This document shows positions 13,608 to 20,322 of a DNA stretch of 35,076 bases, piece after piece (positions within the stretch are counted from its first letter, which is position 1; every line of letters starts with the position of its first letter). Position numbers and translations under genes: made by a program. Source of the DNA: Thermoproteus sp. Its GTDB lineage: Archaea > Thermoproteota > Thermoprotei > Thermoproteales > Thermoproteaceae. The notes beneath the pieces were generated by a model. The model did no database searches. It saw only the letters and a program-made list of their open reading frames with translations, and was not told the DNA's origin. The DNA lies in the NCBI GenBank assembly GCA_049976425.1, contig JBMFIG010000015.1, forward strand, positions 1 to 35,076. Reading direction: 5' to 3'.

Positions 13608-14561
13608 GTGAGGGTAATTCTGGGCACGCCCGTTAGGACGGAGCCCAAGCCCTGGCTCTACTTCGGCGTAGACGCCGTGATGATAAACGCCTTGGATGCC
13701 GACGGGAGGGCCAGAGAGCTCCTGGGGTTCGAGGGCGAGCTATGGGTCGACTCGGGAGGCTATCAGATACTCAAGAGGGGCCTCTCCATATCGCCCTACA
13801 CGCTGGCTAAACGTTATCGGAGCATCGGATGCGACGTCTGCCTATCCCTCGACATACCGCCGACCCCCTCGGATCCGCCGGACGTGGCCGATAGAAAGGC
13901 CGAGGCCTCCTACAGGAACTGGCTGGTCCTCAAATCGGAATTGCCGGGGGCCAGGATAGTGCCGGTGGTCCACGTATATCCGGACGAGGGGCTCTTCTTG
14001 AAATGGATCAAGCGCTACGACGGGGCCGAGGAGCTGGCTGTGGGCGGCGCCGTGCCGTATATACTGATCTCCCGCGGAGCGCCCCGCGGCTCGCGCTCAG
14101 TTGCCTTAAAGCTGATCGCGACGGCCAGGCGCGAGTTCGGCGGCAGGCTCCACGCGCTTGGGCTCGGTAGCCCGTCCATCTCGGCGGCTCTCGAGGCGCT
14201 TCGTATAGACTCGACCGACAGCGCCACGTGGAGGCTCAAGGCCGCCTACGGCAAGGTGCTTCTGCCTGGAGGGGGCGAGCGACATGTGACCGATCGCCAG
14301 GTGAACTTCGGCAAGAAGAAGGCCAGAGACGAAGAGCTGGTCGAGCTCTATCGGTTCCTGAAAAGCTCCGGCTTCCCCGTCCTCGACGGGTTCGAGGACT
14401 ATATAGCCCGTCTCAAGGCCAGTTTCGAGTACCGCGCCCTCGTCAACGCCTGGATAGTGTTGAGGAGCCGCGAGCCTCCGCGGTCGAAGGTCTTCCAGAA
14501 GCTTTATCAAGAGGCGTTAAGCCTCCTCCGTGTCGATACGCCTCTCCAAAAGACCCAGTAG
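13608..14561 (+). CDS. tRNA-guanine transglycosylase-superfamily protein (short, DpdA-like motifs)
   Basis: WVDSGGYQ, SLDIPP, PVVH, AVGG, LHALGLG, DSTDSATW. No CxCxxC Zn site and no PUA domain. Confidence 0.8.
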   Translation: MRVILGTPVRTEPKPWLYFGVDAVMINALDADGRARELLGFEGELWVDSGGYQILKRGLSISPYTLAKRYRSIGCDVCLSLDIPPTPSDPPDVADRKAEASYRNWLVLKSELPGARIVPVVHVYPDEGLFLKWIKRYDGAEELAVGGAVPYILISRGAPRGSRSVALKLIATARREFGGRLHALGLGSPSISAALEALRIDSTDSATWRLKAAYGKVLLPGGGERHVTDRQVNFGKKKARDEELVELYRFLKSSGFPVLDGFEDYIARLKASFEYRALVNAWIVLRSREPPRSKVFQKLYQEALSLLRVDTPLQKTQ

Positions 14562-14862
14562 GGTAAAGCTCAGGGGACGGGCGGAGGCGATCTGCCCCGT
14601 GAGCAAGACAGTCGACGAGTACGTGGTCGAGGTGGAGTACGTGCCGAGGGAACACGCCTTGTTGATAGAGGAGTTCGAGAAGATCTTGGAGAGCTATAGG
14701 GACAGGGAGATATTCCACGAAGAGATAGCGGTGGATATAGCAGAGAGGATAAGAAACGCCATATCGCCTGCATACGTCAAGGTCGTGGCGAGGTCGACCT
14801 ACAGAGGCGTGGAGGTCGAGGTGACGGCCGAGATCGGCGGCCAGCCCACCATATATATTTAG
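14530..14862 (+). CDS. queF-L: QueF-like (QueF-L) T-fold amidinotransferase, archaeosine synthesis
   Basis: 110 aa with catalytic CPVSKTVD, EYVPR..LLIEEF and REIFHEE. Closely resembles the recalled sequence of Pyrobaculum calidifontis QueF-L. Confidence 0.88.
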   Translation: MSIRLSKRPSRVKLRGRAEAICPVSKTVDEYVVEVEYVPREHALLIEEFEKILESYRDREIFHEEIAVDIAERIRNAISPAYVKVVARSTYRGVEVEVTAEIGGQPTIYI

Positions 14863-16647: not shown

Positions 16648-19600
16648 CTACTGCCGCATCAACACCTCCTGTAGGAACTCGGTGAACAGCTCGTCTAGGA
16701 CGGCGACGTAGTTCTTCCTCCCGTTCTCCACATCGTCCATATACTTCTCTATCAGCCTAGTCCTCTCCTCGCTGACCAGTTTGCCGTAGTTCTCCCTTAG
16801 GTATCTATAGATCTCTATACCTCTCTTGGTGGGGATCATGAACTTCCTCCTCCCTCTAACTACCACGTAGCCCCTCCGCGACAGCACCTCGAGTATCTTG
16901 GCATAGGTGCTGGGTCTGCCGATCCCTCTCTCCCTCATCATTCTGAGGACGTCGGCTTGCGAGAGGAGCTCCACGAGCCTCTTGGCGTATGCTATCTCTA
17001 CGTCGACCTCGCCCGTCGGCAGGCGCGGCTCCAGCTCCACCGATCTGTACTCGGCCAAGAATCCCTCGTTCTTAACTTCTACGACCCGCCTCACCTCGGC
17101 GTTAAAGCCGTCGAGCGAGAGCGCGTATCTAGCCACGACCACCTCGGCCTCGCGCATTTGGCTCGCCATGAATCTCCTGAATATGAGATCGTAGGCCGCG
17201 TAGTGGTTCCTCGTGAGTCTTATGGTCGGCTGTATCACGCCAGCCGCCACGAGGCCTCTAAGCTCCTCGGCGTCTATGGGCCTGGTGGGCCTGATCGCCT
17301 CGTGCGCTCCCTCCTCGCCGGCGCTCCAAGTCCTCGGCTTAAAGGCATCGGCGCCGTGGCGCCGTGTAACGTACTCCCTAGCCACGCCTATGCCGGTCGT
17401 CGAGATCCTGGTGCTGTCGGTGCGGTGGTATGTGATGAACCCGCTCTCGAACAGATCCTGCGCTATGTTCATGGCATCCTCCGCGCTTATGCCCAGCTTA
17501 TTCACCGCGTCGCGCATGTATTCGTCGGTGGTATACGGCGGCGGGGGCTGTATGGTCTCGGTCTTCTCCTCCAGCAGAGATATCCTCGCCTTTCTGTTTT
17601 CCCTAAGCGCTTTGTAGACGTCCTCGGGGAGGGCCAGCCTTATCTGTCCATCGCCTATCTTGAGCACCACGTCGAACTTGCGCTCCGCCTTGGAGTTCTC
17701 GTAGCGTTCTACTATCCAGCCGAGCACAGGCGTCTGGACTCTGCCGGCAGAGAGGAAGGCGAGGCCGTGGGCCTCCTGCACCTTCCTGCTTAAGCCAAAG
17801 CCGAGCCATCTATCCTCTATCCTCCTAACGATCTGGGCGGCGACCATCGAGAGGTTGACGTCTCTCGGCGACGCCAAGGCGTTCATAATAGCCCTCCTGG
17901 TCACCTCGTGGAACTCTATCCTCTTGATGAGCCCTACGTAGGGCCGCAATATTAGATATACGTCGTAGGCTATCTTCTCGCCTTCGGAGTCGGGGTCGGT
18001 GCCTAGGTAGACTGCGTCTACTTCGGCCGCGAGCTCCCTCAGCGTGGAGACCATGTCGAGGGGCTTACAGCCCTCAGGCACGTCGAGGTCGTCGACGAAG
18101 GAGCTTCCGGGGCACTTATATATCCTGTTGTATATGGGCACGTACCCCGCCTCTGTCTTGACCACGGAGTAGTCCATCGGGCTGTAGGGACCTGCCGCCA
18201 CAGGCTTCACGAGCCTCCAGATTTTCCTACGTTCGTCTTCGGCCACTCTCTGTAGGTTTGTGGGCAGCTCGTATATGTGGCCCATAGTGGCTATGACGGT
18301 CAACATGGAATCCCCTGTGGACACCTCGTAGGCCGGCATGCCGCCTATTATCAACATGTTGGGCCTCCCGAAGAAAGAGGCTATCGTCCTAGCCTTAGTT
18401 GGGGACTCGACCACCAGCAATATGCTTTTCATGAGATCCCTAGACGCGAGCTCCTCGGGCTTCAACATCCCCGATAGTATGCGCCTTATGTTCTCCCGGT
18501 CCTCATCGACGCTCTTCAAGATGCCGTCTAGGTCGGCCTTCGAGAGCTCCTCGAACCGCACGTCGTCGAATCTCAGCTCCATCTCTCTGATCAACGCGTT
18601 CAGCACCTTCTCGTCGTCGACAAGGACCACGCTGAGGCCTCTCGAGAGGCCTCCGGCGTAGAGGCGCGAGGTCCTCCCGCTTCCCTGTATATATGTCGTG
18701 ACGTCCGGCAGAAGGACATATAGCTGTTCTCCTATATAGGTCAATTTTATCTCCGTGGAGGTCTCTATGGCCTTCCTGATATCGTCCCGGCTCAGGAGAC
18801 TGGCGACGAACTCCACGGCCGATTTGGCGACGCCTAGGACGTACTCCTCGAAGGAGTTTGAGGCCCCCTCTTTCAATATTTTGTCAAGTCTGGCCGAATA
18901 GGGCGCTATGCGCCTCAGTTGCGCTATGAGTCTGTCGGCCCTGAACCTCAGATCTTGCGGCAGGATAGCCCTGACGTTGTAGAGGAAGCTCAAGAAAGCC
19001 GGCACGGAGAACTCGTCCAGCTTGACCCTGAACTTATACTTGGGTATCCCCACGAACACGACGTACCTTATCACGTGGGGCAGATCTATGCCTCTGACCA
19101 GCGCAGATCTAGGCGACGCCAGCCCCACCAAGACAGAGAGCTGGCCTTGCTCGAAGGCCTCCAAGACCTTCCTCCTCGGCCTGAAGAAGTGCTCCGCCTT
19201 GATGCCGGAGGCTTGGAGATGCTGGACAAGATCCTTGCCGAAGTCCTTGTCGAGCACGTAGATTATGCCCCCTCCTCCCAGCCTCTTGACGAGCTCCGCC
19301 ACCTGCGTCTTGGGATCCTCGGCCATCTTCGCGTAGAGGTCGTATACGTTCCTCAGACCCTCGGCCCTCCCCCCTACGTCGAACCCCAAGATCTCTCTGA
19401 ACAGGAGCAACCGCGCCGTGCGTCTGGCCTTGGCGAGGGCGCCCGACGCCACGAAGACTCCAAGCCTCAACTCCGCCTTCATCCTCCTCAACTCCTCTCT
19501 GGCCTTCTCGATCTCCCGCTCTATCCTCTCGGCCTCCTTCTCATCGCCGGCCAGCACCGCCTTGCCCCTCTTCTTGCCCAGTTCTATGAGCTCGAAGGCC

Positions 19601-20322
19601 TTGCCGAGCACCTCGTCGGTGGCGCCCAGCAACTTGAGCAACCGCTCTATGTTCTTGCTGGTGGCCCTCAATACGCTGTCCACGTCGTCGGTGGCTACGA
19701 AGGCGAATTTATGCCTCGCCAAAAGCTCGAAGTACTTGGGGAGAAACGCGGAGGTTATGACCAGTATATCGAAATCCCCCGCCTCGATCCTCTTGAGAGC
19801 CTCCTCCCTCTCCTGGGGCTTGAGCATCGTGTTGTACGTCACTATTCTCGGGGCGAGGCCGGCGCGGGAGGAATAGTCTAGTAGCTTCTTGTAGGCTTGA
19901 TAGGCCAGCGCCGATGTGGGGAACACCAGCAACGCCTTGCCTCGGCTTGTCATATACAGCGCCGATATGAGGAGGAAGGTAGTCTTGCCGGAGCCGGTCG
20001 GCGCAACTACGGCGAAGCTCTTGCCGGCGGCCAGACGCCTAGCCCACAGCCTCTGCGCCCCCCACATGCGGAATCCCACCACCTTCTCGAAAAGGTTCGC
20101 GATTTCCTCGTACCTCCTCAAGACGTCGGCCAGAGGCGCCAGACCCCGCAACGCGTTCCGCCGCCTTAGATTCTCTATGACCCGTCTGATGTCGCCTCCG
20201 GCGACTTCTCCCGGGAGGCATTCGGAGCAGGGAAGCCCTTCGGCGAGTCTATACGACTCTACGGCGCCTCCGCAGTTGGGACAGCTGTGTAGGTACAGAG
20301 CAGGAAGAGCGCGGAAGTCCAC
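16648..20322 (-). CDS. rgy: Reverse gyrase
   Basis: N-terminal CPNC..CSEC Zn finger, SF2 helicase motifs APTGSGKT/DDVD/QGSGRTSR, Toprim VESPTKA and DPDSEGE, topoisomerase IA active site GFITYHRTD, GRPSTY. Confidence 0.97.
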   Translation of the reverse strand: MDFRALPALYLHSCPNCGGAVESYRLAEGLPCSECLPGEVAGGDIRRVIENLRRRNALRGLAPLADVLRRYEEIANLFEKVVGFRMWGAQRLWARRLAAGKSFAVVAPTGSGKTTFLLISALYMTSRGKALLVFPTSALAYQAYKKLLDYSSRAGLAPRIVTYNTMLKPQEREEALKRIEAGDFDILVITSAFLPKYFELLARHKFAFVATDDVDSVLRATSKNIERLLKLLGATDEVLGKAFELIELGKKRGKAVLAGDEKEAERIEREIEKAREELRRMKAELRLGVFVASGALAKARRTARLLLFREILGFDVGGRAEGLRNVYDLYAKMAEDPKTQVAELVKRLGGGGIIYVLDKDFGKDLVQHLQASGIKAEHFFRPRRKVLEAFEQGQLSVLVGLASPRSALVRGIDLPHVIRYVVFVGIPKYKFRVKLDEFSVPAFLSFLYNVRAILPQDLRFRADRLIAQLRRIAPYSARLDKILKEGASNSFEEYVLGVAKSAVEFVASLLSRDDIRKAIETSTEIKLTYIGEQLYVLLPDVTTYIQGSGRTSRLYAGGLSRGLSVVLVDDEKVLNALIREMELRFDDVRFEELSKADLDGILKSVDEDRENIRRILSGMLKPEELASRDLMKSILLVVESPTKARTIASFFGRPNMLIIGGMPAYEVSTGDSMLTVIATMGHIYELPTNLQRVAEDERRKIWRLVKPVAAGPYSPMDYSVVKTEAGYVPIYNRIYKCPGSSFVDDLDVPEGCKPLDMVSTLRELAAEVDAVYLGTDPDSEGEKIAYDVYLILRPYVGLIKRIEFHEVTRRAIMNALASPRDVNLSMVAAQIVRRIEDRWLGFGLSRKVQEAHGLAFLSAGRVQTPVLGWIVERYENSKAERKFDVVLKIGDGQIRLALPEDVYKALRENRKARISLLEEKTETIQPPPPYTTDEYMRDAVNKLGISAEDAMNIAQDLFESGFITYHRTDSTRISTTGIGVAREYVTRRHGADAFKPRTWSAGEEGAHEAIRPTRPIDAEELRGLVAAGVIQPTIRLTRNHYAAYDLIFRRFMASQMREAEVVVARYALSLDGFNAEVRRVVEVKNEGFLAEYRSVELEPRLPTGEVDVEIAYAKRLVELLSQADVLRMMRERGIGRPSTYAKILEVLSRRGYVVVRGRRKFMIPTKRGIEIYRYLRENYGKLVSEERTRLIEKYMDDVENGRKNYVAVLDELFTEFLQEVLMRQ

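Follow-up and report, generated by a model that had tools for sequence, protein, structure and literature searches.

To our knowledge, 7-deazaguanines in DNA have so far been described in phages, in a small number of archaeal viruses, and in the Dpd islands of bacteria. Among T-fold enzymes, QueF-L is the first for which action on a nucleic acid is known. The present analysis concerns a 317-residue protein related to the tRNA-guanine transglycosylases (TGTs), encoded by a gene that overlaps queF-L in a 35,076-nt stretch of DNA from Thermoproteus sp. (contig JBMFIG010000015.1, positions 1 to 35,076; hereafter, the window). An earlier note on this stretch had proposed that the two genes might place archaeosine (G+) in DNA, or else in RNA at a site other than the canonical one. 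The 317-residue protein was found to be, very probably, a member of a Zn-less, PUA-less cellular branch of DpdA1-type enzymes, distinct from both arcTGT and bacterial DpdA. The best single reading of its function, which is put forward tentatively, is that the enzyme inserts preQ0 (7-cyano-7-deazaguanine) into DNA, and that QueF-L then makes dG+.

Phage DpdA was reported to insert preQ0 into DNA and to contain a conserved histidine ("position 196"), and genes of the 7-deazaguanine pathway were reported in 12 Ligamenvirales and 2 Bicaudaviridae (PMC6884629). The archaeal virus STSV-2 carries genes for both DpdA and ArcS2, and its DNA was reported to contain dCDG at 0.04% of G (PMC10516641). For bacterial DpdA (bDpdA), the roles assigned were acid/base for Asp95, base reading for Asp130 and His181, and nucleophile for Asp256; the Zn site is kept, and a guanine-exchange assay exists for this enzyme (PMC10164549). 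Cys21 was identified as the catalytic residue of the P. calidifontis QueF-L, the demonstrated substrate of which is preQ0-tRNA (PMC5485725). The same report describes G+ formation by QueF-L in E. coli tRNA, in which preQ0 occupies a different position (PMC5485725); QueF-L is therefore not tied to position 15 or to one nucleic-acid context. Finally, defence systems that combine HerA/FtsK and TGT components (with GNAT in some), termed BREX-related capture (BRC) systems, have been predicted (PMC12839542).

Relationship of the 317-residue protein to TGT and DpdA enzymes

The motifs of the protein and their counterparts in characterized enzymes are listed in Table 1. All of the motifs quoted in the earlier note, which had described an open reading frame (ORF) retaining the catalytic and base-binding aspartates, were located, and D48, D82, and D204 were invariant in 32 of 32 sequences, aligned down to an identity of 33%. 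This alignment contained 31 invariant columns, none of them Cys, and these include, besides the three aspartates, W46, S49, G50, G51, Q53, P84, P119, H122, G146, P150, H182, L184, G185, S202, W208, R209, K211, A212, A213, G215, P220, G223, E224, F273, R276, and N280. The histidine that the earlier note had seen in place of the TGT glutamine is His122; in a MAFFT alignment of 11 sequences, its column was occupied by His in the STSV2, SIRV2, 9g, Seuratvirus, and Dp-1 proteins, and by Gln in two arcTGTs (PIQG) and E. coli Tgt (IIQG). The CxCxxC..H Zn site is absent, as had also been remarked: the CxCxxC segment of arcTGT and Tgt was deleted in every cellular, viral, and phage DpdA1-type row of the 11-sequence alignment, the only two Cys residues of the window protein, C75 and C78, are not conserved, and the place of the arcTGT Zn-ligand His (ALHNLW) is occupied by FEYRALVNAW, which offers no ligand. 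The window protein thus has the histidine in common with all DpdA types and, since bDpdA keeps its Zn site, the loss of that site only with the phage and viral type. The stretch WRLKAAYGK, which follows DSTDSATW, is common to the window protein and DpdA1, and a C-terminal region of the form W-x2-AA-x-G...FG...RA-x2-N-x-W is common to the window protein, phage DpdA1, and archaeal-virus DpdA.

An AlphaFold2 model, built with 32 homologues, had a mean pLDDT of 91.3 and ended after the barrel and four helices, in agreement with the lack of a C-terminal PUA domain recorded in the earlier note. A structural search against representatives placed arcTGT (1iq8) first, with Z 27.4, a root-mean-square deviation (rmsd) of 3.2, 288 aligned residues, and 19% identity. 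The next matches were Tgt (3unt, Z 22.9), bDpdA (7ui4, Z 21.6, rmsd 3.8, 273 aligned), and QTRT2 (Z 20.7), followed by Cap10 (9ntn_B, Z 16.7, rmsd 3.9, 253 aligned) and generic TIM barrels (Z ≤ 14.8). Foldseek searches of the PDB likewise returned TGTs, and the best structural match in BFVD was a rudivirus protein (E 2e-17). Among fused or longer forms (623-2000 aa), no homologue was found at E ≤ 1e-10, a negative of little weight. With arcTGT (TgtA), the window protein has in common the aligned DSG-Q, LDIP, H-x-x-G, and D-x-x-DS motifs, as well as preQ0 as the expected substrate, but it differs in having His for Gln, and in lacking the Zn site and the C1, C2, and PUA domains. The phmmer alignment to the P. 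horikoshii arcTGT (1iq8) paired DSGgyQ with DSGsfQ, lDIP with lDIP, and iDstDSA with vDlfDSA.

Viral and phage relatives were sought by tblastn among 50,697 phage and virus records, and matches were found in 67 of them (31 Sulfolobus, 2 Sulfolobales, 31 Escherichia, and 3 others). The matches to STSV1, STSV2, and STSV4 covered 91% of the query at 34-35% identity (E ~1e-37), and those to rudiviruses showed 25-29% identity (E 1e-11 to 1e-17); among the matches listed, a Seuratvirus-type DpdA of E. coli phages, named "7-deazaguanosine inserting enzyme", showed 27.6% identity over residues 101-282 (E 8e-5). By BLASTP, the protein was 34% identical to the STSV2 DpdA (STSV2_15) over nearly the full length (E 8e-46). 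Alignment of the family profile with hhalign extended over 218 columns, through the C-terminal helices, for the Seuratvirus DpdA (probability 98.0, E 1.5e-13), and over 183 columns, ending just past the nucleophile, for the arcTGT of the window genome (probability 97.1, E 5e-11).

A maximum-likelihood tree of 54 rows and 347 columns (IQ-TREE, LG+C20+F+G4, a quick and then a careful run) included the window protein, 31 other cellular sequences, 6 archaeal-virus DpdAs, 8 phage DpdA1s, 7 arcTGTs, and E. coli Tgt. A branch of length 1.75 with 100/100 support parted arcTGT and Tgt from the cellular family, phage DpdA1, and archaeal-virus DpdA, so that both the profile search and the phylogeny, which the earlier note had named as checks, separate the window protein from arcTGT. 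The window protein grouped with its own genus (100/100) and then with the sister genus (99/99), and the cellular tree followed genera. The phage DpdA1 clade (100/100) sits on a long branch (1.53). The DpdAs of STSV1, STSV2, and STSV4 and of the rudiviruses (SIRV2, SIRV11, SBRV1) were nested within the cellular clade of one family, f33 (100/100), which suggests that the gene has been exchanged between the viruses and the lineage of their hosts. The tree is to be read with its long end branches in mind (phiSM, Arbiter, Tgt, G299, G061b), with long branches meeting and six rows of unusual composition, and it leaves out bDpdA, DpdA2-4, the ArcS N-domain, Cap10, and euryarchaeal arcTGT.

The phage DpdA1 enzymes of Enterobacteria phage 9g and Escherichia phage CAjan (Seuratvirus) resemble the window protein as stand-alone TIM-barrel transglycosylases of ~300 aa, with the same catalytic Asp columns, His in the Gln column, no CxCxxC..H site, and the same C-terminal motifs (DSS-W..AA-G, FG, RA-x2-N-x-W). 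They lie on the same side of the 100/100 branch and have a genetic link to preQ0 or G+ genes, which in the window is queF-L, a link not found in every genus. They differ in being phage-encoded, beside DNA polymerase and preQ0 synthesis genes, whereas the window gene is a chromosomal archaeal core gene beside queF-L and transporters, with ~23-28% identity. DNA activity is known for the phage enzyme only (PMC6884629). The closest viral relative, STSV-2 DpdA, also overlaps a small downstream gene for a G+ synthase, by 23 nt compared with the 32 nt of the window; it is viral, however, it nests with the f33 clade rather than with the window's order, and its partner is ArcS2 (STSV2_16, a DUF5591 core) rather than a T-fold QueF-L. 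The base reported for STSV-2 DNA also differs, being dCDG, at the low level given above, and not dG+ (PMC10516641).

On the arcTGT equivalog TIGR00432, the window protein scored 35.7 bits against a cut-off of 350, Pfam returned no match at E ≤ 1, phmmer against PDB sequences returned arcTGT 1iq8 only (E 1.1e-6), and phrog_887, named "queuine tRNA-ribosyltransferase", matched with E 1.1e-17. The earlier note had left room for the window protein being the only TGT of its genome; a canonical arcTGT was found on another contig (C14), in a 508-aa frame that scored 523.1 bits on TIGR00432 and 236.5 bits, above cut-off, on PF01702. The window ORF was the only other match to these two models in the genome (31.4 bits). 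Contamination was considered for the C14 contig, since its protein looks low in G+C, and was rejected, because this arcTGT is 74% identical to that of a complete genome of the same genus.

As an observation on the C14 arcTGT itself (locus L002, 1327-2853, minus strand), LPCSTKLCDK stands at the place of LPCTCPVCSK in another arcTGT of the class, and one Cys of the CxCxxC Zn motif seems to be missing from the arcTGT of the window's genus.

No PADLOC family matched the window protein at E ≤ 10, and the PADLOC model of bDpdA (PDLC02807), applied to the whole genome, touched arcTGT only (E 0.008). In a control, a genuine phage DpdA1 was matched at only E 0.0013 and STSV2 DpdA was not matched, so the PADLOC blank says nothing against DpdA1-type membership. 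By profile, bDpdA (7ui4) was reached at E 0.33, with PVVH aligned to vaHG and a second stretch at the C-terminal motif that was not significant alone. Regarding ArcS, the NCBIfam scan (E ≤ 1) listed only TIGR00432 for the window protein, and PF17884 gave a single sub-threshold match in the genome, inside the arcTGT. The bDpdA of S. Montevideo (7UI4) resembles the window protein in its PUA-less TGT fold, in the base-reading His181, and in the same Asp acid/base and nucleophile, but it keeps a Zn site, carries specific insertions, depends on DpdB, a ParB-like ATPase, and acts together with DpdC and with restriction genes (PMC10164549); bDpdAs are 413-436 aa long, compared with 317 aa for the window protein. 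The proposal that the protein is DpdA-like rather than arcTGT-like was thus borne out with respect to phage DpdA1 and archaeal-virus DpdA, by the tree, the histidine, the Zn loss, and the C-terminus. It failed with respect to the DpdA of the bacterial Dpd systems, in which the Zn site is kept, for which the PADLOC model was blank, and to which the structural score was lower than to arcTGT.

QueF-L and the candidate archaeosine synthases of the genome

The 110-aa ORF that overlaps the transglycosylase gene aligned with the QueF-Like archaeosine synthase 5jyx/5k0p, residues 3-110 on residues 2-109 of 109 (E 1.3e-37), and scored 43.5 bits on the Pfam QueF family PF14489 (cut-off 27.3, E 3.7e-11). 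The CP-SKT motif was aligned, and Cys22 (in AICPVSKT) falls in the column of Cys21, the catalytic residue of the P. calidifontis QueF-L. A single copy of queF-L is present in the window genome.

The sole full QueC of this genome is found in a 497-aa frame on another contig (C19:13408-14901), with MCSIGG after the first residue of the frame. This motif is typical of a class-II (Ntn) amidotransferase fused to QueC, and the frame is accordingly a predicted GAT-QueC. The QueC frames of two complete genomes of the window's genus (491 and 497 aa) looked the same, and in the sister genus the QueC frames of two genomes were short (279 and 285 aa). Because GAT-QueC is present as well as QueF-L, the genome contains two transglycosylases and two candidate G+ synthases, and the genus with the queF-L overlap could thus maintain separate pathways for tRNA and for another target.

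Distribution of the family

A word-indexed protein search returned 170 homologues at E ≤ 0.001 among 5242 candidates, with a best non-self E of 4e-187; these homologues, together with the high mean pLDDT of the model, place the 317-aa protein far beyond chance. The homologues are named "tRNA-ribosyltransferase" or "hypothetical" and come from Thermoproteus, Pyrobaculum, Vulcanisaeta, Caldivirga, Ignisphaera, and others. In a survey of 120 genomes of the class, the window genome (G000) included, a family-level match was defined as a best E ≤ 1e-30. Within the window's order, such a match was present in 60 of the 61 other genomes, the exception (G087) being 54% complete; outside the order, it was present in only 2 of 58 genomes (G009, G020). 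Weaker matches elsewhere in this survey were arcTGTs, in frames of ~500-570 aa. Nearly all genomes of the order that carry the gene also showed an arcTGT-type match, and those with a single match were incomplete or held a gene fragment.

In a sample of the phylum, 58 of 401 genomes and 22 of 161 genera matched at E ≤ 1e-25. By family, these comprised 22 of 22 genomes in f1, 12 of 12 in f3, 5 of 5 in f32, 9 of 15 in f33, and 1 of 2 in f4, with 8 of 87 genomes in further families, f43 and f52 among them. The DpdA-like family is a core gene of the window's order, patchy elsewhere in the phylum, and vertically inherited. With this near-complete occurrence across the order, the enzyme is no rarity of one hyperthermophile.

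Genomic neighbourhoods

With the window queF-L as query, 41 of the 120 genomes of the class survey matched at E ≤ 1e-5. The gene adjoins the DpdA-like gene in 7 of the 8 genomes of the window's genus, including the window genome (six co-directional, one convergent); the eighth, 76% complete, had no queF-L match. The pair was seen in 6 of the 30 loci examined, all from the window's genus. In the sister genus, the two genes share a contig but are 3-33 kb apart; genera g8 and g9 showed only weak (27-37% identity), distant matches, and genera g3-g7 gave no match to this query. The adjacency proposed in the earlier note was therefore seen within the genus and not in other genera and, since the overlap is confined to the window's genus, the pair is not a conserved operon. 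The wider idea of an archaeosine module survived in another form, in that the same enzyme pairs with a non-homologous DUF5591 protein both in f33 and in STSV viruses. One genome of the window's genus (G110:C19:19991-21249) has queF-L beside the DpdA-like gene but on the opposite strand, and the adjacency has thus outlived an inversion.

All six loci of family f33 contain a gene of 174-202 aa (BLAST cluster c1) within four genes of the DpdA-like gene: directly downstream in three, divergent and adjacent in one, two genes upstream in one, and four genes off, past a transposase remnant, in one. Pfam DUF5591, the core of ArcS, was confirmed in four of the six (E 9e-17 to 4e-21), with the other two assigned by the BLAST cluster, and this gene was the sole one over the DUF5591 cut-off in 5 of 5 genomes. 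The f33 genomes also have arcTGT-type matches, and in 4 of 4 genomes tested the QueC domain lies in a 466-492-aa frame, which is GAT-QueC length; the DpdA-like/DUF5591 module is therefore additional to the tRNA pathway. The DUF5591 genes of STSV1, STSV2, and STSV4 overlap the DpdA gene (by 23 nt in STSV2), and the STSV2 partner (STSV2_16) matches ArcS models over the core only.

Three of the six f33 loci also contain a HerA-type ATPase (DUF87, 1.3e-30 in the one scanned) and a protein of 1010-1020 aa with a weak BrxC/BrxD match (4.9e-4, below cut-off), and in one (L041) a NurA-domain gene adjoins the DpdA-like gene (2.2e-22). In L040 (G262:C1, 6001-12232), and also in L042 and L044, these genes stand in a row of DpdA-like, DUF5591, HerA-type ATPase, and the ~1015-aa protein with the weak BrxC/BrxD match, and this four-gene row looks like an undescribed modification-plus-capture defence module. 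The BRC systems are alike in placing a TGT-fold enzyme by a HerA-type translocase and a BrxC-like P-loop protein (PMC12839542), but no PglZ, DUF4007, STAND, or GNAT gene was found in the f33 loci examined, and none of the BRC partners in the window; the likeness is one of gene arrangement.

Within the window's order, a HerA-type ATPase (HAS barrel and DUF87) adjoins the DpdA-like gene in genera g9, g6, and g3. High-scoring orthologues of this ATPase occur across the order (21 of 22 genomes in f1 and 11 of 12 in f3), and in the window genome the orthologue lies on another contig; the adjacency may therefore be inherited synteny, and was weighed lightly. In g9 (L053, G079:C1, 4327-7352; also L004), the ATPase and the DpdA-like gene are followed by a conserved gene of 115-117 aa, which had no Pfam or NCBIfam match and no tblastn match in the window genome.

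Other contexts vary. In the sister genus, a Trm112-like gene lies downstream of the DpdA-like gene, with DUF134 also in the context. In f32, a radical-SAM gene lies by the DpdA-like gene, and ribosomal protein L35Ae was found in one locus. This radical-SAM gene (Pfam Radical_SAM and Fer4_12) was considered as QueE and was not counted, since the QueE models gave only 22-23 bits and the NCBIfam matches were weak and unspecific. In two of three f43 loci, a radical-SAM gene with spore-photoproduct-lyase and DUF1848 matches adjoins the DpdA-like gene, and in f52, a ribonucleotide reductase and an AIR-synthase-related gene are nearby.

Proposed reaction and alternative functions

In the proposed reaction, Asp204 would attack C1′ of the target guanine nucleotide and displace guanine, forming a covalent intermediate, with Asp48 as the acid/base, and preQ0 from the cell's own pathway would then be inserted. 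The likeliest target would be DNA, as for every characterized member of the clade. The overlapping, probably co-translated QueF-L would then convert the nitrile to the formamidine of archaeosine (dG+) by way of a thioimide at Cys22 and ammonium. What the analysis shows is homology, conserved residues, the position in the tree, a separate arcTGT, and the gene neighbourhoods; the activity of the enzyme, preQ0 as incoming base, DNA as target, and the action of QueF-L upon the product are inferred. DNA and dG+ were favoured because the characterized members of the clade act on DNA, and because genes for dedicated G+ synthases, and for HerA or NurA, repeatedly lie beside the gene.

Several observations weigh against this proposal. 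The DNA target would follow from phylogenetic bracketing alone, and the bracketing is weakened by the long-branch warnings for the phage clade and by the missing bDpdA, DpdA2-4, ArcS N-domain, and Cap10 sequences. QueF-L is experimentally a preQ0-tRNA enzyme and is single-copy, so that its adjacency could just reflect the tRNA pathway, and arcTGT is, for the predicted model, the nearest solved structure, ahead of bDpdA. The core-gene pattern across the order is a better fit to a housekeeping RNA-modification enzyme than to a defence gene. Neighbourhoods vary by genus, and the Trm112-like gene of the sister genus hints at RNA methylation. No restriction, helicase, or ParB-like partner was found within the window, in which the flanks are two ABC transporters, and the HerA-type orthologue of the window genome is on a different contig (C12). 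DpdC (PF03883/DUF328) had no match in this genome, which is 99.4% complete, and no search for DpdB was made. STSV-2 is not a clean precedent, since the modified fraction reported for its DNA is small and the base unexpected (PMC10516641).

A broader form of the proposal is possible, and less secure than the reaction itself: that a core, vertically inherited, Zn-less DpdA1-type enzyme serves the Thermoproteales, along with several further lineages of crenarchaea, to introduce archaeosine or preQ0 into the DNA of their own chromosomes after replication. The modification would then be a housekeeping 7-deazaguanine mark of DNA, comparable to orphan Dam or CcrM, and the window's genus would run arcTGT and GAT-QueC for tRNA, and the DpdA-like enzyme and QueF-L for DNA. 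The cellular family would have been the source from which Sulfolobus viruses, and possibly also the lineage of phage DpdA1, acquired the gene. In the papers searched, supplements aside, we found no description of the cellular crenarchaeal family, or of dG+ or dPreQ0 in crenarchaeal chromosomal DNA. If the enzyme acts on DNA, the chromosomes of cultivable hyperthermophiles would contain archaeosine and QueF-L would gain a second substrate class, and questions would open on genome stability in heat, on self/non-self marking against viruses, and on the origin of viral DpdA.

The main alternative, a serious though less probable one, is that the protein is a second RNA-guanine transglycosylase, which would introduce preQ0 into tRNA elsewhere than at position 15, or into some other RNA, with QueF-L again converting it to archaeosine. 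The spread of the gene is typical of RNA-modification enzymes (60 of 61 genomes in the order, and all genomes sampled from f1, f3, and f32), the overlapping queF-L encodes an enzyme with preQ0-tRNA as its only demonstrated substrate (PMC5485725), and the closest solved fold is that of arcTGT. The Trm112-like gene that lies downstream of the DpdA-like gene in the sister genus, the absence from the window of partners linked to DNA, and the database name "tRNA-ribosyltransferase", assigned automatically, point the same way. However, the window protein lacks both the tRNA-binding additions of arcTGT (the C-terminal domains with PUA) and the Zn subdomain of arcTGT, Tgt, and bDpdA, and it groups, across the 100/100 branch from arcTGT and Tgt, with enzymes that act on DNA. 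The f33 enzyme, moreover, has its own G+ synthase and HerA or NurA neighbours despite the arcTGT-type matches and GAT-QueC-length QueC of its genomes. G+ was reported at positions 13 and 15 in Thermoplasma, which would give a precedent for an additional site, but that site was reported to be made by arcTGT itself, with no paralogue (PMC4770233). If RNA is the target, the enzyme would provide a second, PUA-less and Zn-less route to RNA archaeosine. With either target, the database name carried by the ~170 proteins has no experimental basis.

All TGT-type enzymes catalyse guanine-for-guanine exchange, and a different base exchange is a further, unlikely alternative: a DNA-repair "insertase" for damaged or deaminated guanine, salvage or release of 7-deazaguanine from nucleosides, or a Cap10-like attachment of a deazaguanine to protein. 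The generality of the guanine exchange favours such a role; a core gene of hyperthermophiles would suit repair, and in f43 the gene resembling photoproduct lyase adjoins in two of three loci, but the repair option is otherwise without specific support, and the recurrent partner of the DpdA-like gene, a G+ synthase of two unrelated folds, points instead to a 7-cyano substrate on a polymer. The Cap10-like option draws on the structural likeness to Cap10 (CBASS) and on a preprint on TGT-fold "TIM-B" proteins predicted as effector regulators (10.64898/2026.10.19.760177). Against it, Cap10 scored far under arcTGT, Tgt, and bDpdA, no QueC-like Cap9 or CD-NTase gene was found among the flanking ORFs, and PADLOC gave no match. 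A redundant or decaying duplicate of arcTGT without a function of its own, which the weak TIGR00432 match and the length below that of arcTGT might suggest, is highly improbable, being contradicted by the 31 invariant columns that include all catalytic residues, the intact gene in 60 of 61 genomes of the order, the confident fold, and the deep, well-supported separate clade.

Gene arrangement and other features of the window

The features of the two genes are collected in Table 1. The overlap of 32 nt with queF-L, given in the earlier note, was found as described. It implies co-transcription of the two genes, and their translation is probably coupled. The 150 nt that precede the queF-L start contained no TATA-like hexamer; because such a box precedes the transglycosylase gene, the two genes are probably expressed as one transcript. 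The position of the box would make the transcript of the transglycosylase gene leaderless or nearly so. The N-terminus of the protein, MRVILGTP, agrees with the N-termini of its homologues in the 32-sequence alignment, and the annotated start is therefore sound. The pair is flanked upstream by an ABC transporter ATPase and permease, and downstream by an ABC ATPase and a 244-aa ORF without a Pfam match. Of the sequencing data sets listed as containing the stretch, one was hot-spring metagenome DNA, with a further run from that study, and none was RNA.

Table 1. Positions of the two overlapping genes in the window, of the putative promoter element, and of the motifs of the 317-residue protein
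Feature	Position	Strand	Remarks
TATA-like box TATATAAA	13581-13588	+	Ends ~19 nt ahead of the GTG of the TGT-like gene; putative promoter element
TGT-like gene, very probably of the DpdA1-like branch of the TGT superfamily, no Zn site or PUA	13608-14561	+	317 aa; GTG start; stop TAG at 14559-14561; TIM barrel and C-terminal helices
DSGGYQ (residues 48-53)	13749-13766	+	Asp48 in the column of arcTGT Asp95/bDpdA Asp95, general acid/base; Tyr52 replaces the base-stacking Phe
LDIP (81-84)	13848-13859	+	Asp82 in the column of the base-binding Asp130 of arcTGT and bDpdA
PVVH (119-122)	13962-13973	+	His122 column: Gln in arcTGT/Tgt; His in phage DpdA1, archaeal-virus DpdA, and bDpdA (His181)
GGAVP (146-150)			Motif of the 317-aa protein
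HALGLG (182-187)			Motif of the 317-aa protein
DSTDSATW (201-208)	14208-14231	+	Asp204 in the column of the nucleophile, arcTGT Asp249/bDpdA Asp256
SSGFPV (253-258)			Motif of the 317-aa protein
FEYRALVNAW (273-282)	14424-14453	+	C-terminal helix motif, common with phage DpdA1 (ESRAAxNLW)
Overlap of TGT-like ORF and queF-L	14530-14561	+	32 nt shared, different frames
queF-L, T-fold archaeosine synthase QueF-Like	14530-14862	+	110 aa; GTG start; structure-sequence match and Pfam

Two further observations were made in the window. Between 25000 and 26260, the G+C content drops to 0.448, compared with a window mean of 0.59; this stretch takes in the last part of one ORF as well as ~700 nt without an ORF of at least 100 aa, and it contained no Rfam match (E ≤ 0.01), no tRNA, and one 16-nt two-copy repeat only. 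Beyond the downstream flank of the gene pair, a 1224-aa ORF on the minus strand (16648-20322) has a Zn-finger-like N-terminus (CPNCGG), a region similar to helicases, and a C-terminal half similar to topoisomerases, and from these features it was read as a putative reverse gyrase, a marker of hyperthermophiles.

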